From: Candidatus Woesearchaeota archaeon
GTDB lineage: Archaea > Nanobdellota > Nanobdellia > Pacearchaeales > UBA284
Length of the DNA: 64,000 bases
Assembly (NCBI GenBank): GCA_964481435.1
Contig: CAYZTH010000001.1
Coordinates: 7,992-71,991, forward strand
Reading direction: 5' to 3'
In this document: one piece after another, positions 5,670-12,098 of the stretch
How the letters are laid out: every line of letters begins with the position of its first letter
Position numbering within the stretch: position 1 is the stretch's first letter
Position numbers and translations under genes: made by a program
The notes under the pieces: generated by a model
The model's database searches: none
Told to the model about the DNA's origin: nothing
Seen by the model: the letters and a program-made list of their open reading frames with translations, nothing else

Positions 5670-5766
5670 TTTTATACTCTTTTATTAATGATAAATAATC
5701 GGATTCAAATCTTAAAAATCTTTACATTATGCAAAGGTTTAAAAACATACACTGAAAAAGATTATT

Positions 5767-5964
5767 ATGATCATACCAATTCGTTGTCTATCCTGCGGTA
5801 AGCCAATAGCTCACCTCTGGGAAAAATACAAAGCAAAAGTAGCTAAGGGAGAAGATCCAAAGAAAGTTCTAGATGAGCTAGGTGTTCAGAGATACTGCTG
5901 CAGATCCATATTCCTTGGCCATGTTGACCTATTGGAGATGACAAGCAAGTTCAAGAAATTCTAG
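5767..5964 (+). CDS. rpoN: DNA-directed RNA polymerase subunit N (Rpo10/Rpb10 homolog)
   Basis: 65 aa; MIIPIRCLSCGKPI...RYCCR zinc-binding pattern diagnostic of RpoN/Rpb10. Confidence 0.85.
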   Translation: MIIPIRCLSCGKPIAHLWEKYKAKVAKGEDPKKVLDELGVQRYCCRSIFLGHVDLLEMTSKFKKF

Positions 5965-6143
5965 ATATTATTTTTTATTTATGGTTTTGTATTTAGATTA
6001 TACTCTAAGATTTTTTTAATAATAAGTTATCAAGAAAAAAACACGAAGACAACTTATATGTTTCCCAACAATAGCCAGTACAGCATATAACGCCAGGCGC
6101 TTAACTTCTGTGATCTGACGGGAACAGGTGTTTCCACCTAGCT

Positions 6144-7031
6144 ATGGTCGTCTTCATTATCAAGTGGTTTTATTCATTTTTAAACCTTACGATTTGGAAT
6201 AAAAAACTTTTTAAACCAGAGTTTTCTACTTATAGAATGGGTGGGACTAAAGGCAAAGAAAAAATTGCGGAACTCTGCGGGGCAGTAATGGGTGACGGAT
6301 GGATTGAGGAAAGAGAAAGGGGATTTTTTATAGCGGGAGATCCTTCAGAAGATGGAGAATATTATGACCGGCATTTCTTAAAATTGATAAATGGAGTTTT
6401 AGGAATAAATGCAAAAACAAAAAATTTTCCATATTGGCGCGTTTATGGAATTGCGCTGTATAAAAAAGAATTAATCAGGAAATTGTTAGGTTTTGGGTTA
6501 ACTAAAGGAAAAAAGGTTAAGTCTGCATACGTCCCAGAATGGATATTTAATTCAGATAAAAAAATTGCTTTCTCATTTCTTCGGGGCCTCTTTGATACAG
6601 ATGGTTGTATTTTTTGTCAGAAAGATTATACTAAATATGCCGATGAATTTAACTCAAAATATCATACTAAAATTAGGATAAGAATAGGCTGTATTTCTTC
6701 AAAACTAATAGATCAGATATTTATTTTATGCAAAAAATATGGGTTTAAAGCAGTAAGAAGAACAGTTAAAAGAGGATTTAGTTATCATAGGAATCGTTGT
6801 GACACCCACATTTTAGAAATAAATGAAATTAAAAGCATCGGTAATTGGTTTGATAATCTTAAACCTTCAAACCCCAAGCATGTAACAAAATATTTAATAT
6901 GGAAGAAATTTGGTTTTTGTCCTCCAAAAACCACCCTTAAACAAAGAAAGGATATACTTAAAAATACACTCAACCCCTATAAATTATACGCGGGAGTGTC
7001 GGAGCGGTCAAACGAGAAGCGCTCAAGCTAA
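6144..7031 (+). CDS. LAGLIDADG-family endonuclease, double-motif single chain; 3' end overlaps the tRNA-Leu 5' exon
   Basis: Two LAGLIDADG-like motifs, LCGAVMGDGWI and LRGLFDTDGCI, about 100 aa apart; C-terminal KPSNPKH tail shared with the paralog at 11149-12024. The true start may be the internal ATG near 6235. The TAA stop lies inside the tRNA intron. Confidence 0.6.
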   Translation: MVVFIIKWFYSFLNLTIWNKKLFKPEFSTYRMGGTKGKEKIAELCGAVMGDGWIEERERGFFIAGDPSEDGEYYDRHFLKLINGVLGINAKTKNFPYWRVYGIALYKKELIRKLLGFGLTKGKKVKSAYVPEWIFNSDKKIAFSFLRGLFDTDGCIFCQKDYTKYADEFNSKYHTKIRIRIGCISSKLIDQIFILCKKYGFKAVRRTVKRGFSYHRNRCDTHILEINEIKSIGNWFDNLKPSNPKHVTKYLIWKKFGFCPPKTTLKQRKDILKNTLNPYKLYAGVSERSNEKRSS

Positions 7032-7101
7032 GAGTTTTAAAAATTTTTACGAGAGACGCTTTGGCTTAGTGCCTGCGGAGGTTCGAATCCTCTCTCCCGC
7101 A
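6990..7101 (+). tRNA. tRNA-Leu(CAA), class II with long variable arm, ~28-nt intron after position 37
   Basis: Hand-folded: acceptor GCGGGAG/CTCCCGC, D-arm TCG...CGA, anticodon stem AAGCG/CGCTT, loop CUCAAG|A giving anticodon CAA, variable arm GGCTTAGTGCC, T-arm GGAGG-TTCGAAT-CCTCT, discriminator A, CCA not encoded. Confidence 0.8.
7028..7055 (+). other. tRNA-Leu intron (canonical 37/38 position, bulge-helix-bulge type presumed)
   Basis: 28 nt (CTAAGAGTTTTAAAAATTTTTACGAGAG) interrupts the anticodon loop between G37 and A38; exact boundaries may shift by 1-2 nt. Confidence 0.6.
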
Positions 7102-7114
7102 TTTTATTATTAAA

Positions 7115-7705
7115 ATGAAAATCACAAAAGAACAGTTCAAGAAAATAAAGGCATTTGCAAAGAAGCATCTTTCTAAAAATGATGATTGGCACAACCTTTT
7201 TCATGTAGAGCAAACAGTAAGACTTTCCATTTTTCTTGCAAAGAAAGAAAAAGCAGATGTTGACAAATGCGCAATTATTGCCTGGCTCCATGATATTAAG
7301 AAAAGAGCCAAAGAGGATGGAAGGGATCATGCAAAAGAAGGGGCAGAAAGAGCAAGGATTTTCCTTACCAAAATAGGTCTGTACAATGAAGATATAGATG
7401 ATATCTGTTATGCAGTATATGTTCATAATAAGGGAGTTAAAAAAAAGACAAAAGAAGCCCAGATAATTTATGATGCAGATAAACTTCAAGCAATTGGCCC
7501 CTATGGCATTTTAAGGGCGTACGGTCATTCAGTTATAAGGAAAAACAGCCAAGCACGCGCATATAGGGAATTTCAAAATGGACAAAAAATGTATATGAGG
7601 GGAATAAGCACAAAAACCGCTAAAAGGATCGCGAGAGAAAAATTTCAACTTATGAAAAAATTCAATAAGCACTATGAAGATATTCTGAATATAGGTAAAA
7701 AATGA
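7115..7705 (+). CDS. HD-domain phosphohydrolase
   Basis: H...HD...D metal-binding pattern (WHNLFHVEQT, AWLHDIKK, YDADKL); paralog at 59683-60345. Confidence 0.7.
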   Translation: MKITKEQFKKIKAFAKKHLSKNDDWHNLFHVEQTVRLSIFLAKKEKADVDKCAIIAWLHDIKKRAKEDGRDHAKEGAERARIFLTKIGLYNEDIDDICYAVYVHNKGVKKKTKEAQIIYDADKLQAIGPYGILRAYGHSVIRKNSQARAYREFQNGQKMYMRGISTKTAKRIAREKFQLMKKFNKHYEDILNIGKK

Positions 7706-8202
7706 AAAGACCCGATAGACAAGCAACACTCTGTGTTGTGATAGACCGGAATAAGAATAAGATTCTCCTTGCCATGAAGAAAAGAGGATTTGGTGTTGGC
7801 AAATATAATGGATTTGGCGGCAAGATCAAAGAGGGAGAAACAATTGAACAAGCCGCAGTCAGGGAATTTCAAGAGGAATCTGAATTAAAGACAGAATTAA
7901 AATATTTAAAAAAAGTTGCCGAAATGGATTTCTTTTTTCCGCATGAACCCCAATTTGACCAGACAATGCATGCTTTTCTTGTTGAAAAATGGGCCGGAGA
8001 GCCTCGAGAGACCGAAGAGATGGCGTTCAAGTGGTTTGACTTGGATAAAATTCCCTATACAGAGATGTGGGACGATGATAAATACTGGTTGCCAAGAGTT
8101 ATTGATGGAAAGATATTAAAGGCAAAGTTTGTTTTCAGATTAGAAGGAAACGAGCATATTAATGACCAGCAAGAAATAAAAGAGGTAGAATGTTTTGATT
8201 AA
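7702..8202 (+). CDS. NUDIX hydrolase (MutT/MTH1-like)
   Basis: Nudix box GGKIKEGETIEQAAVREFQEESEL (GX5EX7REUXEEXGU); 4-bp ATGA overlap with the HD gene. Confidence 0.8.
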   Translation: MKRPDRQATLCVVIDRNKNKILLAMKKRGFGVGKYNGFGGKIKEGETIEQAAVREFQEESELKTELKYLKKVAEMDFFFPHEPQFDQTMHAFLVEKWAGEPRETEEMAFKWFDLDKIPYTEMWDDDKYWLPRVIDGKILKAKFVFRLEGNEHINDQQEIKEVECFD

Positions 8203-8203
8203 A

Positions 8204-8704
8204 ATGAATAAACCTAGAAAAGTAAGGAGAGTAACGTCTCAAGAGCCGGGAACTGGGGCACAAAAATATCTTGTTGACACTTCGGTGATAGCGCAGAAAA
8301 AATTATACCCCCTTTTCAAAGATAAGATTAAAGGGGAGCTTCTGATTCCAAATGCGGTTATTGCTGAGCTTGAAAATTTAGCTAATCGCGGCCAGGATAT
8401 TGGTTTTGATGGATTAGAGGATATAGCCAAACTTCATCATCTTAAATCAAGAGTCAAGATAAGATTTCTTGGCGATAGGCCGACAGGACATCAGATTAAA
8501 TTTGCTAAGTCTGGCGAGATAGACGCTTTAATAAGAAATTTAGCAGTTCAAGAAAAAGCAGTCTTAATTACTGCCGATAAAGTCCAAGCAAAATCCGCCC
8601 AGGCATATGGCCTTAAAGTTTTCTTCATAAAAACAATCTTCAAGGAAGAAAAGAAAAAATTCTCCCTTTTTGGATTTAAGAAAAATAACAAAAAAAAGAA
8701 ATAA
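8204..8704 (+). CDS. PIN-domain protein (predicted nuclease)
   Basis: YLVDTSVIA N-terminal acidic motif and overall PIN-like pattern; the ORF track starts at TTG 8195, a likelier ATG is at 8204; Lys-rich tail. Confidence 0.4.
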   Translation: MNKPRKVRRVTSQEPGTGAQKYLVDTSVIAQKKLYPLFKDKIKGELLIPNAVIAELENLANRGQDIGFDGLEDIAKLHHLKSRVKIRFLGDRPTGHQIKFAKSGEIDALIRNLAVQEKAVLITADKVQAKSAQAYGLKVFFIKTIFKEEKKKFSLFGFKKNNKKKK

Positions 8705-8773
8705 GTTTATAAATCATTATTTAATTATCTCGTTATAAATTAATTTTTCAATTTATATTTGAAAAGAAGAGAA

Positions 8774-9400
8774 ATGATACCAAAAAAGATATTTTTTACT
8801 AAAGGCGTAGGAAGAGATAAAGAGAAATTAAAGTCTTTTGAGCTAGCTTTGAGAGATGCTGGAATCCAGCATTTTAATTTAGTAAATGTTTCAAGTATTA
8901 TGCCCCCTGGATGCAAGATAGTTCCAAGATCCCAGGGCTTGCAGGAGTTACATGCCGGGGAAATTGTTTTCTGCGTTATGGCTCGAAACGAAACAAATGA
9001 GCCAAATAGGCTTATTTCAGCCGCAATAGGTTGTGCAGTTCCTTCTGATCCAAACGCTTATGGTTATCTATCTGAGCACCACGACTTTGGTATGACGGAT
9101 TCTAATGCAGAGGATTATTCTGAAGACTTGGCAGCAACCATGCTTGCCTCTACTCTCGGAGTTGAATTTAATCCAGATGCGAGCTACGATGAAAGAAAAG
9201 AAGTTTGGAAGATCTCAGACAAATTTGTCAAGACAACAGCAATAGCACAATCAGCAGTGGGGGATAAAAATGGTCTATGGACTACGGTTGTTGCCGCAGT
9301 TATCTTTGTTCCTCCACAAGTTGAACCAAAAGGAGAATCGCTTCCTCCTATGCAAACAGAAATCACAACTGGAACCGCAAAAGATTCGGCCCAATCTTAA
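8774..9400 (+). CDS. pdaD: pyruvoyl-dependent arginine decarboxylase (PdaD) with ~40-aa C-terminal extension
   Basis: MIPKKIFFTKGVG start and the self-cleavage motif NLVNVSSIMPP (Ser-Ser pyruvoyl site); ATG at 8774 is preferred over the TTG at 8759 used by the ORF track. Confidence 0.75.
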   Translation: MIPKKIFFTKGVGRDKEKLKSFELALRDAGIQHFNLVNVSSIMPPGCKIVPRSQGLQELHAGEIVFCVMARNETNEPNRLISAAIGCAVPSDPNAYGYLSEHHDFGMTDSNAEDYSEDLAATMLASTLGVEFNPDASYDERKEVWKISDKFVKTTAIAQSAVGDKNGLWTTVVAAVIFVPPQVEPKGESLPPMQTEITTGTAKDSAQS

Positions 9401-9430
9401 GCTTTAAATATTCTCAGTTATTTAATAATT

Positions 9431-10348
9431 ATGGCAAATGAAATTTATGACCTGGCGATAGTTGGTGCAGGGGCAGCAGGATGTACTGCCGCAATATATT
9501 CTGCGAGAAGAAACTTGAAAACCCTCCTCCTAGATTCAAAAGCCATGGGGGGCTTATACACTGAAGCAACAATCATCGAAAACTATCCGGGTTTTGATAA
9601 AATTTCAGGCATAGAGCTGGCCCAGAAATTCCATAAGCAAGTTCAAGCACTCCCCATAAAGTTTATTCAAAAGGCTGTTGAAGACATAAAGAGTAAAAAA
9701 GATTTATTTGAAATCAAGACCGACAAAGAGACATTCGTAAGTAAAGCAATTATTATAACTTCTGGGCTTCAACCAAGAAATCTGGGTCTTGATACAGAGA
9801 AGAAATTTGTTGGTAAAGGAATAAGTTACTGTGCAACGTGTGACGCCCCTTTATTCCAGGGCAAGGATGTTGCAGTTGTTGGGGGAGGAAATTCTGCATT
9901 TTACTATGCTCTTCATCTTTCAGAGATATGCAATAAAGTCTATCTGATAAATATCAAAAAAGAATTCAGCGCAGACGATGTCGTTATATCAAAGGTCAAG
10001 TCCCAAAAAAATGTTGAATTCAAAGCCCCTTTTTCAGTATCAGAACTTAAGGGAAAGAATTTTTTAGAATCTATAAAAATAAAGCAAGATGGAAAAGAGC
10101 AAGTCCTTAATGTTTCAGGCTTGTTCATAGCAATAGGGCAAGAACCCAAGCTAGATTTCTTAAAAGACTTAAAACCCGCCCTTGGGGAAAAACACACTCT
10201 AAAAGTTGATGAAAATCTAAAAACATCGATAACAGGCATGTTCGCCGCAGGCGATGTCACCGGAACAGCGGGCCAAATAATAATTGCATGTGGCCAGGGA
10301 GCCAAGGCTGCCCTTAATGCGACCCAGTATCTTAAAGAAAAAGATTAA
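9431..10348 (+). CDS. trxB: thioredoxin-disulfide reductase
   Basis: FAD motif IVGAGAAG, redox-active CATCD, NADPH motif VVGGGNSA, C-terminal GDV...AAG FAD motif. Confidence 0.85.
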   Translation: MANEIYDLAIVGAGAAGCTAAIYSARRNLKTLLLDSKAMGGLYTEATIIENYPGFDKISGIELAQKFHKQVQALPIKFIQKAVEDIKSKKDLFEIKTDKETFVSKAIIITSGLQPRNLGLDTEKKFVGKGISYCATCDAPLFQGKDVAVVGGGNSAFYYALHLSEICNKVYLINIKKEFSADDVVISKVKSQKNVEFKAPFSVSELKGKNFLESIKIKQDGKEQVLNVSGLFIAIGQEPKLDFLKDLKPALGEKHTLKVDENLKTSITGMFAAGDVTGTAGQIIIACGQGAKAALNATQYLKEKD

Positions 10349-10363
10349 TAAAATTAATATAAA

Positions 10364-10948
10364 ATGGCAGAAGTGAAAGTTTTAATTGAAGGTTATGCAA
10401 AAAAAGATAAAAATGGCTGGTTAGCTTCTCCCGCAACAGTTCTAATCAAAGATAACGGTTTGAATATAATTGCAGATCCTGGTTCAAACAAAAAGCTTCT
10501 ACTTAAAAAACTAGCAGAAGAGAAGCTTAAACCCGAAGATATAAATCTTATATTTGTTACGCACTATCACCTAGACCATACTCTAAACATCAGACTTTTT
10601 CCAGATTGTGACGTATTAGATGGGACTGAAATAAATAGGGATGATAAAATCATAAGTTATTCTGATAAGATTCCTGGGACAAGTATTCAAGTAATTCAAA
10701 CTCCCGGACATGCTCACGAACATGCTTCATTGATTGTCAATACAAACAAAGGTAAGATCCTTATTGCAGGGGATTTATTCTGGTGGAGAACTGATGAAAA
10801 ACAGGCAACGGATTATGAAAGCTTGATAAAAAAACAAGACCCTTATGTCAAAGATGAGGAAGAGATTGAAGAAAGTAGAAAGATGGCTTTAGCCTTAGCA
10901 GACTGGGTTATTCCCGGTCATGGCAAGATGTTCAAGGTCAAAAAGTAA
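10364..10948 (+). CDS. MBL-fold metallo-hydrolase
   Basis: VTHYHLDH (HxHxDH) metal-binding motif; ~190-aa beta-lactamase fold. Confidence 0.7.
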   Translation: MAEVKVLIEGYAKKDKNGWLASPATVLIKDNGLNIIADPGSNKKLLLKKLAEEKLKPEDINLIFVTHYHLDHTLNIRLFPDCDVLDGTEINRDDKIISYSDKIPGTSIQVIQTPGHAHEHASLIVNTNKGKILIAGDLFWWRTDEKQATDYESLIKKQDPYVKDEEEIEESRKMALALADWVIPGHGKMFKVKK

Positions 10949-10950
10949 AA

Positions 10951-11024
10951 CGCACCCGAGAGGAGTTGAACCCCCAACCTAAGGCTTAGGATGCCTTCGC
11001 TCTATCCAGTTGAGCTACGGGTGC
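10951..11024 (-). tRNA. tRNA-Arg(CCT)
   Basis: Reverse complement folds as GCACCCG-TA-GCTC-AACTGGATA-GAGC-G-AAGGC-AUCCUAA-GCCTT-AGGTT-GGGGG-TTCAACT-CCTCT-CGGGTGC-G; anticodon CCT; T-stem has two G-U pairs. Confidence 0.75.
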
Positions 11025-11074
11025 TTGATATCTTTATCGATTATATATTTAAATAACTTCTTTAAGAAGAAGCA

Positions 11075-11146
11075 TGCGCCGGCCGGGGGTCGAACCCGGG
11101 TATATTGCTTGGAAGGCAATAGTCTTGACCACTGGACCACCAGCGC
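11075..11146 (-). tRNA. tRNA-Gly(TCC)
   Basis: Reverse complement: acceptor GCGCTGG/CCGGCGC (one G-U), D-arm GTC...GAC, anticodon stem ATTGC/GCAAT, loop CUUCCAA (anticodon TCC), T-arm CCGGG-TTCGACC-CCCGG, discriminator A. Confidence 0.7.
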
Positions 11147-11148
11147 GC

Positions 11149-12024
11149 TTAATTAAAGTATAAATTGAACTTTTTTAAATGTTTAGGATTAGCAGGTTTT
11201 ATTACTTCAAAAAACCTCTTGATATCCTCTTTTTTATACAAATAAACATTTTTCTTCCTTATGCCAAATTCAAAATCTATAAACTTTAGGCCACCTTTTA
11301 TTTGTTCTAAATAAACAGGGTCCCCACTGGATATTTCAACAACAGGGTCTTTTTTTCTTCTTATATAAAATGTTCCATCTGTATCAAATAGGCCCCTAAA
11401 ATAGTTAGCAAGGAGATTTTTATCAGAAAAAATTTCTTTAGGGATACCTAGTTTCCCCATTTTCCTTCCTTTTGGTAACTCAAATTCTTTTGTTAAAAAA
11501 TCAATTAATTCTTTGGAATATCCCCTTAACTTCAAATAATGATTAAATTTTTCAATATTGAACTTCATTTTAAAGAGTTCTTCAAATTTTTTCTTTAGAT
11601 ACAAGAAATAATTCGTATCACCCAAATTCCCTGTAACAGAAACTTCATGATTTATTTTGCTTAAATGCCCGTCTCCATTAAGAACGCCCAAAACTTCAGC
11701 AAGGTTCTGGTCTAAAATAGGTTTATTTATGCACTTTTTCAAATATTTTTCCATCACAATTATATCAAATTTTTTTGGATTAAATGAAGATATTTTTACC
11801 AATTTATCAAAAGTGATTTGAGGAATTAAGCAATCTCCTCTTTTGTATTTGAAAATCATATCTCTAGTAACCCCTAATTCCTTTGATAAATGGGGATAGG
11901 TAGAAACTTTTTCTTTAGCTTTTTTAAAGAGATTATTTCTTTCTAACGCATTAATCTTTATGAAATTAGCCATAATCCTTAGAAGAATTTCATATTTATA
12001 AATCTTATTATTTCTACTAACCAC
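11149..12024 (-). CDS. LAGLIDADG-family endonuclease, double-motif; stop codon 3 nt before the tRNA-Gly 5' end
   Basis: Motifs LAEVLGVLNGDGHL and FRGLFDTDGTFYI; C-terminal IKPANPKH tail matching the paralog at 6144-7031. Confidence 0.6.
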   Translation of the reverse strand: MVSRNNKIYKYEILLRIMANFIKINALERNNLFKKAKEKVSTYPHLSKELGVTRDMIFKYKRGDCLIPQITFDKLVKISSFNPKKFDIIVMEKYLKKCINKPILDQNLAEVLGVLNGDGHLSKINHEVSVTGNLGDTNYFLYLKKKFEELFKMKFNIEKFNHYLKLRGYSKELIDFLTKEFELPKGRKMGKLGIPKEIFSDKNLLANYFRGLFDTDGTFYIRRKKDPVVEISSGDPVYLEQIKGGLKFIDFEFGIRKKNVYLYKKEDIKRFFEVIKPANPKHLKKFNLYFN

Positions 12025-12062
12025 TATACTACCAACGCATGATTTTATCAGATATGCTCAAT

Positions 12063-12098
12063 TTAAAAACCTTTTTCACAGAAATGAAAGGTTTTTAA
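12063..12098. promoter_or_regulatory. perfect 12-bp inverted repeat (TTAAAAACCTTT-N12-AAAGGTTTTTAA) in the divergent intergenic region
   Basis: Read directly; sits between the LAGLIDADG start (12024) and the secF start (12121); candidate operator or hairpin. Confidence 0.35.

Follow-up and report, generated by a model that had tools for sequence, protein, structure and literature searches.

LAGLIDADG genes docked on the 5′ sides of tRNA genes in DPANN archaea: candidate free-standing homing endonucleases, one of them inside a split tRNA-Gly gene

The 64,000-nucleotide (nt) stretch of a Candidatus Woesearchaeota archaeon genome analyzed here (contig CAYZTH010000001.1; hereafter the window) contains two LAGLIDADG open reading frames (ORFs), ORF1 and ORF2, which end at the 5′ side of tRNA-Leu(CAA) and of tRNA-Gly(UCC), respectively. 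Sequence comparison makes it fairly probable that both are free-standing homing endonucleases targeting tRNA genes, and that they belong to a large superfamily of DPANN archaea docked at tRNA 5′ sides. These are the only LAGLIDADG ORFs of the 64-kb window, which has only three tRNA genes. By a simple estimate (3 tRNAs/64 kb), the chance that both ORFs would end within ~45 nt of the 5′ end of a co-oriented tRNA is ~4e-6.

An initial annotation of the window had described the two ORFs (6144-7031, plus strand, and 11149-12024, minus strand) as paralogs that each abut a co-oriented tRNA gene. Both frames are present in the ORF list, the two proteins have 26% identity over ~218 residues (E 6e-13), and ARAGORN and Rfam agree with the positions of the two tRNA genes and with the succession of tRNA-Gly and tRNA-Arg(CCT) on the minus strand. 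Reading of the sequence also places the TAA stop codon of ORF1 (7029-7031) at nt 2–4 of the tRNA-Leu intron, as had been described. The start codons of the long frames are artefacts. ATG 6144 overlaps the 5S rRNA gene (6044-6155, minus strand), and GTG 12024 is inside a tRNA-like fragment; family alignments and TATA boxes at 21 nt lead to ATG 6237 and ATG 11973 instead. The gap between the stop codon of ORF2 and tRNA-Gly, given earlier as 3 nt, is 2 nt in the sequence.

The association with tRNA genes extends to relatives, sampled here as ~160 loci from Woesearchaeota/Pacearchaeota-type genomes. These loci were collected through the ORFs themselves, which biases the frequencies of association upwards, and ARAGORN misreads tRNAs with odd introns, by which the number of tRNA-linked ORFs is underestimated. 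An ARAGORN-detectable co-oriented tRNA is found at the stop codon of 86 out of 133 LAGLIDADG ORFs. As regards the check proposed initially, the homologs are overwhelmingly linked to tRNA genes, though not in every case. The ORF2 family includes ~120 proteins of 270–290 amino acids, and in most of its 43 listed loci (including a few duplicates) tRNA-Gly(UCC) is just downstream of the ORF. The ORF1 family had 269 hits. In 80 metagenome loci with ORF1 relatives (25–62% identity), the ORF ends from ~−60 to +40 nt of co-oriented tRNAs for Leu (CAA, UAA, AAG, GAG), Arg (UCG), Ala, Ser, Gln, Pro, Met, and others, and each subfamily is, in these comparisons, tied to one tRNA identity. The C-terminal tails of the called ORF2-family proteins vary, as they correspond to the translated tRNA 5′ end, and the tails of ORF1-family proteins correspond to the translated 5′ end of tRNA-Leu. 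Distant free-standing relatives are also linked to tRNA genes, and the next relatives beyond these are intein domains. Docking of LAGLIDADG genes on tRNA 5′ sides is thus widespread in DPANN archaea and apparently undescribed: a full-text literature search found no account of such a strategy in archaea, in line with the initial annotation, although its coverage was incomplete and the result is an absence of evidence only.

Both ORFs match the Pfam family PF14528 (LAGLIDADG_3) above the cut-off. In alignments of 23 sequences per family, the motifs take the forms GDG and DTDG in the ORF2 family and GDG and DxDG in the ORF1 family. The catalytic aspartates at the ends of the two LAGLIDADG helices (D101 and D199 in ORF2, D20 and D122 in ORF1) and the motifs GDG and D(T)DG are invariant in 23/23 sequences of each family. 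From the position of the motifs, we take these residues to be equivalent to D21 and E117 of I-DmoI. Profile searches of the PDB with both families matched solely homing endonucleases (the Tli and Pho VMA intein endonucleases, PI-PfuI, and I-Tsp061I). The AlphaFold2 (AF2) model of ORF1 has a predicted local distance difference test (pLDDT) score of 87.9 and its top Foldseek match is I-Tsp061I, with PI-SceI and I-DmoI also matched. The model of ORF2 (pLDDT 94.3) has intein endonucleases, I-Tsp061I, and I-DmoI as top matches. Foldseek probabilities are 1.00 to I-Tsp061I, I-DmoI, PI-SceI, and the Tli VMA intein endonuclease. According to these models, both ORFs have the single-chain, two-motif LAGLIDADG endonuclease fold, in which each of two LAGLIDADG helices packs an αββαββα domain. 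The model of ORF2 includes an additional N-terminal helical domain of ~85 amino acids, for which only the predicted helices and the sequence pattern suggest a helix-turn-helix (HTH)-like character. The ORF1 protein aligns without gaps with its orthologs at 94% and 84% identity, and the ratios of nonsynonymous to synonymous substitution rates (dN/dS) of 0.10 and 0.08 indicate strong purifying selection.

The initial annotation had proposed a mobile endonuclease family that homes to the 5′ flank of tRNA genes. The linkage, the existence of empty loci in both families, and the intact active site are in agreement with this proposal; it has to be amended for the placement of ORF2, which is not simply on the flank but inside a split tRNA-Gly gene. 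Upstream of ORF2 there is an orphan 5′ piece of tRNA-Gly(UCC), fragment A, which the initial annotation had overlooked and which consists of the acceptor 5′ strand and the D-arm. It is preceded by a TATA box at 23 nt and followed by the TATA box of ORF2 at 11 nt, and it recurs in orthologous loci. A less biased sample was obtained by a search with the neighboring SecF protein, for which seven homologs were looked up. Five of the seven loci (L165–L168 and L172) have tRNA-Gly(UCC) by SecF and lack ORF2, whereas L171 and L006 are filled. When loci are ranked by the identity of SecF to that of the window, the filled loci (L171, 84%; L006, 73%; L007, 62%; L001, 55%) interleave with the empty ones (L165, 76%; L172, 74%; L166, 65%; L167, 61%; L168, 59%). 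The empty-site tRNA-Gly genes open with GCGCTGGTAGTATAGTGGTTAGTAT, which is fragment A, behind the same promoter at the same 23-nt spacing (L165, L166, and L172). Because the empty genes start with fragment A and its promoter, the filled allele corresponds to the empty allele interrupted after nt 24–25.

The insert has ~890 nt and contains, in this order, a purine-rich stretch, the P2 TATA box, ORF2 with an embedded tRNA promoter, and a second copy of tRNA nt 1–25. The LAGLIDADG ORF is the only gene of this cassette, and no recombinase is present. By comparison with the empty alleles, the working tRNA-Gly is composed of nt 1–25 of the cassette joined to nt 26–76 of the resident gene. The two copies of nt 1–25, one on either side of ORF2, are 67–88% alike. 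In the clade nearest the window, the copies of fragment A are 94% alike between genomes and 95% like the empty-site tRNAs; for the working 5′ parts, the corresponding values are 71% and 77%. The window, L002, and L007 have cassettes with one and the same replacement 5′ part, GGTGGTCCAG..AAGAC. As for the 3′ parts of the tRNA, they resemble the local empty alleles, that of the window being similar to L172 and that of L007 to L166. The same architecture is found on another tRNA in L133, where the 5′ copies match at 26/27 nt and the insertion looks recent. In L045, only the last 79 codons of ORF2 are left, which still abut tRNA-Gly by SecF and keep the embedded TATA box.

Two further observations concern ORF2-family loci. 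In L045, a small DUF4405 membrane-protein ORF (5676-5987) is found where the N-terminal two-thirds of ORF2 are missing. In L026, two different tRNA 5′-like fragments, GCGTCGGTAGTACAATGGTTAAT and AGTCTAATGGTTAGG, stand in tandem (~5870-6000) upstream of a single ORF2-family gene and may be the trace of successive insertions.

Empty loci also exist for ORF1. In L001 and L007, the 5S rRNA gene and tRNA-Leu(CAA) are 89–164 nt apart, without an ORF, and a TATA box precedes tRNA-Leu at 24 nt. L168 is apparently empty as well (~220 nt between 5S and tRNA-Leu, from coordinates alone), and 11 listed loci (two of them duplicates) have tRNA-Leu(CAA) without a preceding LAGLIDADG ORF. ORF1 occupies the space between 5S and tRNA-Leu in the window, L169, and L170, and the site is also filled in L024. 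The 5S/tRNA-Leu neighborhood is found in relatives too, and the 5S gene is the left boundary of the site. Hence, presence/absence polymorphism at a defined site, a signature of mobility, is observed for both ORF1 and ORF2. Nothing is duplicated at the ORF1-type site: no repeats of tRNA segments were found around ORF1, and an orphan 5′ fragment of tRNA-Leu is mostly absent upstream of ORF1-type genes, the exceptions being L104, L133, L137, and L101.

The last 42 nt of ORF1 overlap tRNA-Leu, and its stop codon is the sole part of ORF1 within the small intron of this tRNA (28 nt by ARAGORN, placed at 7028-7055 by reading of the sequence). The local fold of this intron, with two 3-nt bulges flanking a helix of 3–4 bp, is compatible with a bulge-helix-bulge. 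In collaborative homing, a free-standing endonuclease, F-CphI, is encoded beside the intron of cyanophage psbA, and the resident copy is shielded by interruption or by sequence change. Taken as a lead, that system resembles the situation here in that the endonuclease gene is beside its putative target. The intron is, however, unneeded here: in L170 (141-992, P0122) ORF1 reads through an entire intronless tRNA-Leu, and therefore the intron in the window is not required for the coexistence of tRNA-Leu with ORF1. The intron as a general shield of the filled allele was rejected on these grounds, since most ORF1-family loci are intronless like L170. In sequence terms, the tRNA-Leu intron merely supplies the stop codon of ORF1.

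TATA boxes are found 21 nt upstream of ATG 6237 and of ATG 11973. A TATA-to-ATG spacer of 20–22 nt is present in 18 of the 24 ORF2-orthologous loci and in several loci of the ORF1 family (the window, L087, L024, L107, and L115), which suggests that the mRNAs of ORF1 and ORF2 are leaderless. Within the last ~12 codons of each ORF there is a second TATA-like box: CATTTAAAAAAG in codons H-L-K-K of ORF2 (11179-11172), 25 nt before position +1 of tRNA-Gly, and ACTTAAAAAT in codons I-L-K-N of ORF1 (6958-6965), 24 nt before position +1 of tRNA-Leu. Most close ORF2-family loci have CATTTAAAAAAG at a spacer of 22–27. Among 62 non-redundant ORF-abutted tRNAs, 69% have a TATA-like 7-mer at a spacer of 22–29, versus 6–10% in control windows, and the embedded boxes peak at the position of ordinary intergenic tRNA promoters in the same loci. 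A putative tRNA promoter is thus very probably inside the endonuclease ORF. The KP(S/A)NPKH tail shared by the two ORFs, noted initially, stands as a family motif at the protein level, with the qualification that in the ORF2 family the codons after the tail (H-L-K-K) very probably double as tRNA promoter. Cotranscription of ORF and tRNA, with RNase P defining the 3′ end of the mRNA, had also been suggested. This is possible, but read-through from the ORF promoter is not required because the tRNA promoter, with its own embedded TATA box, is very probably within the ORF.

In most ORF1-family genes the stop codon comes from the tRNA itself (e.g., UAG at tRNA nt 8–10). Cleavage by RNase P at position +1 of the tRNA would strip the stop codon from such mRNAs, which could act as a brake on expression. 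The last codons of ORF1, TATAAATTATAC (6975-6989), resemble the leader of an empty-site tRNA-Leu, TATAAAAACTAT (L001 7090-7106, minus strand), and the promoter/leader region inside ORF1 may therefore be homologous to the original tRNA leader.

If both ORFs are homing endonucleases, the enzyme would cut endonuclease-free alleles of its own tRNA gene, near nt 25/26 for ORF2 and near the leader or 5′ end for ORF1, and repair would copy the cassette from the filled allele. Splitting of the site, or recoding of the replacement 5′ part, would make the filled allele immune. The tRNA would remain functional through two modes of docking: the ORF1 type is placed ahead of the gene, and the ORF2 type splits the gene and replaces its 5′ part. 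The architecture of the ORF2 locus could have arisen when a unit of the ORF1 type invaded a second tRNA-Gly gene after a cut near nt 25/26, relying on homology that is limited to the 3′ side. With the tRNA promoter inside the ORF, simple deletion of the ORF would silence the tRNA, favoring retention of the element. More tentatively, and with the odds somewhat against it, the ORF2 unit may be a natural "cleave-and-rescue" element, which would cut wild-type tRNA-Gly(UCC) near nt 25/26 and carry a recoded, nuclease-resistant version of nt 1–25. Were this the case, loss of the nuclease gene would silence an essential tRNA, the promoter of the replacement being written in the C-terminal codons of the nuclease. 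Orphan tRNA 5′ fragments with promoters would be a by-product, so that endonucleases would offer a concrete explanation of how archaeal tRNA genes came to be fragmented and split, and the conserved orphan fragment would serve as an operator of the nuclease or as a homology arm.

Several observations weigh against homing. Its support is wholly comparative. The dN/dS of ~0.1 is as low as that of ordinary host genes. ORF2 identities correlate with those of SecD (Mantel r 0.49, p 5e-4; for SecF versus SecD, r 0.83), and no pair of genomes was found in which ORF2 is much more similar than the host genes, so that no recent transfer was seen; over the sampled range, the inheritance of ORF2 looks largely vertical. 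The tRNA-Leu that accompanies ORF1 has an intron in some loci and none in others, so the intron does not explain immunity. Finally, fragment A is 96% conserved in the closest pair, versus ~60% in the adjacent spacers (hand count). Because a plain insertion scar would have decayed, fragment A is either functional or repeatedly renewed by re-invasion. One possibility is that it is an operator or half-site for the ORF2 protein, for which its position, ending 10–12 nt before the ORF2 TATA box, makes it a candidate; another is its renewal by re-invasion of functional empty alleles.

Could fragment A be a true exon, with ORF2 inside a giant intron of tRNA-Gly, or a half of a split tRNA that is joined in trans? 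DPANN archaea have splicing endonucleases of broad specificity, and split tRNA genes are found in Nanoarchaeum. A tRNA-type promoter precedes fragment A at a conserved distance, and for L009 ARAGORN reports a "tRNA with a 904-nt intron", with similar calls for L100 and L133. However, the tRNA body carries a complete 5′ part of its own in all filled loci, which makes splicing unneeded and speaks against fragment A as an exon. A scan for bulge-helix-bulge motifs that would link fragment A to the body of the tRNA yielded none that was consistent across 13 loci, and the giant intron was rejected; the sole recurrent match (nt 15/16, 3 loci) follows from the palindromic GTAC/GTAT present in both copies. 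The split half was rejected too, as the only 3′ end of the 64-kb window that pairs with fragment A is that of tRNA-Gly itself; two other CCAACGC sites in the window are not tRNA-like. By hand comparison, the acceptor strand of fragment A mismatches the 3′ strand in 5 out of 12 loci, whereas the working copy pairs with it in the loci checked, and the acceptor part of fragment A has decayed in several lineages. We therefore regard an exon or a split half as highly unlikely. The ARAGORN calls of tRNAs with 800–900-nt introns (L009 5935-6927, with the 904-nt intron; L100 195-1077; L133 3809-4780) are likely a recurring annotation artefact, in which the orphan fragment is joined to the real 3′ part.

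A more serious alternative, if still an unlikely one, is that the LAGLIDADG proteins have been domesticated as sequence-specific DNA binders of the host, e.g., to regulate the adjacent tRNA or their own promoter. For proteins of the ORF2 family, a candidate pair of protein and operator would be the HTH-like domain at the N-terminus and fragment A, directly upstream of the transcription factor B recognition element (BRE) and TATA box of ORF2. The strong purifying selection on ORF1 is consistent with this, as are the divergence of ORF2, which tracks that of SecD and SecF, the synteny, which is stable in 19 genomes, the extra helical domain, and the conservation of fragment A beyond neutral expectation, 10–12 nt upstream of the P2 TATA box. 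There are precedents: WhiA is a bacterial regulator derived from a LAGLIDADG protein, with a C-terminal HTH and without the catalytic residues, and I-TevI acts as its own repressor by way of an operator resembling its homing site. Some database sources do label ORF2 homologs as WhiA, and WhiA/DUF199 shares with ORF2 the combination of a LAGLIDADG scaffold and an HTH-type domain. The matches to WhiA-related profiles are weak (PF14527, 18.1 bits versus a cut-off of 23.2), as is the Foldseek match, and ORF2 was rejected as a WhiA-like domesticated regulator because both catalytic aspartates are kept, the extra domain is N-terminal, and the distribution is patchy instead of universal in the lineage. 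More generally, both aspartates are invariant in 23/23 sequences of each alignment, whereas WhiA has lost them. The proteins are dispensable, because close relatives differ in their presence at the same locus and one copy is truncated. The many paralogous subfamilies, each with a different tRNA, are expected of target-specific selfish elements and not of a regulator. In addition, an active homing endonuclease could also regulate itself through fragment A, so that domestication overlaps in part with homing.

The SSV- and pNOB8-type elements integrate at segments of archaeal tRNA genes. A host defense nuclease might recognize the wild-type tRNA sequence in the attachment sites of integrating viruses and plasmids and destroy these invaders, the host's own copy being protected by its split or recoded state. 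That segments of tRNA genes provide the attachment sites of integrative elements in archaea (PMC3293823), that the working 5′ parts are unusually diverged with an orphan wild-type copy kept, and that selection on the protein is strong are all in agreement with such a role. It is nevertheless improbable, since the distribution is patchy and the retention of an orphan wild-type fragment, itself a partial target, is left unaccounted for. The simplest alternative, coincidental adjacency in compact genomes where gene overlaps are common, has a negligible probability: at ~1 tRNA/20 kb one expects well below 1% of adjacency per gene by our own estimate, versus 86/133 observed, and neither the correspondence between subfamilies and tRNAs nor the insertion footprints can come from packing.

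Free-standing homing endonucleases, the reading we favor, can be compared with several known systems. The ORFs share with I-Tsp061I, I-DmoI, PI-PfuI, and the Tli VMA intein endonuclease the same fold, the two-motif single-chain design, and the catalytic acidic residues. Archaeal rRNA-intron and intein endonucleases target conserved RNA or housekeeping genes, as these ORFs would. Intron and intein endonucleases sit in a self-removing element, whereas ORF1 and ORF2 have no surrounding intron or intein and the host gene is kept working otherwise. As stated in the initial annotation, no group I intron (Rfam, at the gathering threshold and at E ≤ 10), intein host, or integrase ORF was found in the neighborhood. 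The class of intron-encoded endonucleases was rejected, given the lack of a group I match and, in 13 loci, of a consistent bulge-helix-bulge, and the complete 5′ part after the ORF. Reports of group I introns in archaea are confined to rRNA genes (PMC6125680). SegB is a free-standing homing endonuclease in the tRNA gene cluster of phage T4 and is thought to spread by "intronless homing", in which the corresponding region of genomes without the gene is cut (PMC2330249), which resembles the situation here in that a free-standing endonuclease gene is by tRNA genes. SegB is a phage GIY-YIG protein encoded between tRNA genes, whereas ORF1 and ORF2 are archaeal chromosomal LAGLIDADG genes fused to the tRNA 5′ end, with an embedded promoter, and the ORF2 type, unlike SegB, splits the tRNA gene itself. 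The ORFs fit the pattern of free-standing endonucleases of the phage Seg/Mob type, with a stand-alone gene beside a conserved gene and its absence at this place in relatives, the family being LAGLIDADG instead of GIY-YIG or HNH.

An integrated element with a similar anatomy has been described at tRNA-Thr(GGU) of Caldiarchaeum subterraneum, where an orphan 5′ tRNA fragment, the element, and a complete tRNA follow each other; the element, which is similar to integrating plasmids, has 1.8 kb and codes for a DNA recombinase (Sugahara et al. 2012, PMC3293823). The anatomy is that of the ORF2 locus, and the state is polymorphic among related genomes. The difference is in the content, as the ORF2 cassette has ~890 nt and the LAGLIDADG gene only. 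An integrase-type tRNA element was rejected because the cassette holds one LAGLIDADG ORF and there is no integrase ORF in the neighborhood. tRNA genes are classic landing sites of integrase-type elements, and in archaea they can be interrupted, permuted, or split, for reasons that are debated. The data point to a different agent at these genes, free-standing LAGLIDADG endonucleases on many DPANN tRNA genes. The footprint of ORF2 (a cut after nt 24–25, a promoter-bearing orphan, and a replacement 5′ part) makes one route of tRNA fragmentation testable. An unusual dual code results where the C-terminus of a protein overlaps a promoter for the gene that follows, and it could explain the persistence of the element. 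The annotation of DPANN genomes would also gain, as the ORFs are mostly unannotated or mislabeled "WhiA" and the orphan fragments prompt spurious calls of tRNAs with giant introns. If active, these enzymes would be a pool of natural meganucleases with specificities for tRNA genes.

Coordinates of the features of the two loci (positions in the 64-kb window)
Feature	Position	Strand	Evidence
ORF1 frame, long version	6144-7031	+	ORF list
ORF2 frame, long version	11149-12024	−	ORF list
ORF1, single-chain LAGLIDADG endonuclease (predicted), 264 aa	6237..7031 (ATG 6237)	+	Pfam PF14528, family alignment
ORF2, LAGLIDADG endonuclease (predicted), 274 aa	11149..11973 (ATG 11973)	−	Pfam PF14528, family alignment
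5S rRNA gene	6044..6155	−	Rfam RF00001, 69.5 bits
TATA box TTTTTAAA, putative promoter of leaderless ORF1 mRNA	6208..6215	+	Read from sequence
TATA-like box TTAAAAAT in ORF1 codons I-L-K-N, putative tRNA-Leu promoter	6958..6965	+	Sequence reading
tRNA-Leu(CAA), 28-nt anticodon-loop intron	6990..7101	+	ARAGORN (introns allowed); Rfam, 41.6 bits
tRNA-Arg(CCT)	10951..11024	−	ARAGORN and Rfam
Working tRNA-Gly(UCC), first 25 nt GCGCTGGTGGTCCAGTGGTCAAGAC	11075..11146	−	ARAGORN and Rfam, 61.7 bits
TATA box TTTAAAAA in ORF2 codons H-L-K-K, putative tRNA-Gly promoter	11172..11179	−	Sequence reading
P2 TATA box TTTATAAA, putative cassette-borne ORF2 promoter	11995..12002	−	Sequence reading
Fragment A, orphan tRNA-Gly(UCC) 5′ piece GCGTTGGTAGTATAGTGGTTAGTAG	12014..12038	−	Sequence reading and comparison
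P1 TATA box TTTTTAAA, putative original promoter of resident tRNA-Gly	12062..12069	−	Sequence reading

The neighbors of the two ORFs code for RpoN, SecF/SecD, and pyruvoyl arginine decarboxylase, with an Rpr2 gene in relatives. The neighborhood of RpoN, 5S, tRNA-Leu, tRNA-Arg, tRNA-Gly, and SecF/SecD recurs in many relatives, with local inversions. tRNA-Arg(CCT) is a downstream neighbor with its own promoter region and no endonuclease gene in front, and it also adjoins the empty tRNA-Gly site in L166. The 5S rRNA gene is back-to-back with ORF1 and has a promoter-like TTTAAAAA 21 nt upstream, on the minus strand (6184-6177). In L004, an ORF of 282 amino acids adjoins the 5S gene; it was rejected as a LAGLIDADG protein and has a weak CorA-like match instead. 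Two LAGLIDADG ORFs stand in tandem on the contig of L133 (2915-3604 and 3986-4660), and it is the second that lies between the tRNA 5′ copies with 26/27 matching nt.

The tRNA-Gly(UCC) genes of relatives have introns at unusual places (the D-loop, the anticodon loop, and apparently the T-arm), sometimes several per gene, for example in L002 (4833-4933), L007 (6830-6925), L009 (6833-6927), and the downstream regions of L026–L040. ARAGORN misnames many of these genes as His, SeC, Lys, Trp, and others. An anticodon-loop intron of ~50 nt is common to the empty-site tRNA-Gly genes of L165, L166, L168, and L172. In the D-stem of tRNA-Leu, the window and L169 share T10:A25, a compensatory change relative to the C10:G25 of L001, L007, and L170.

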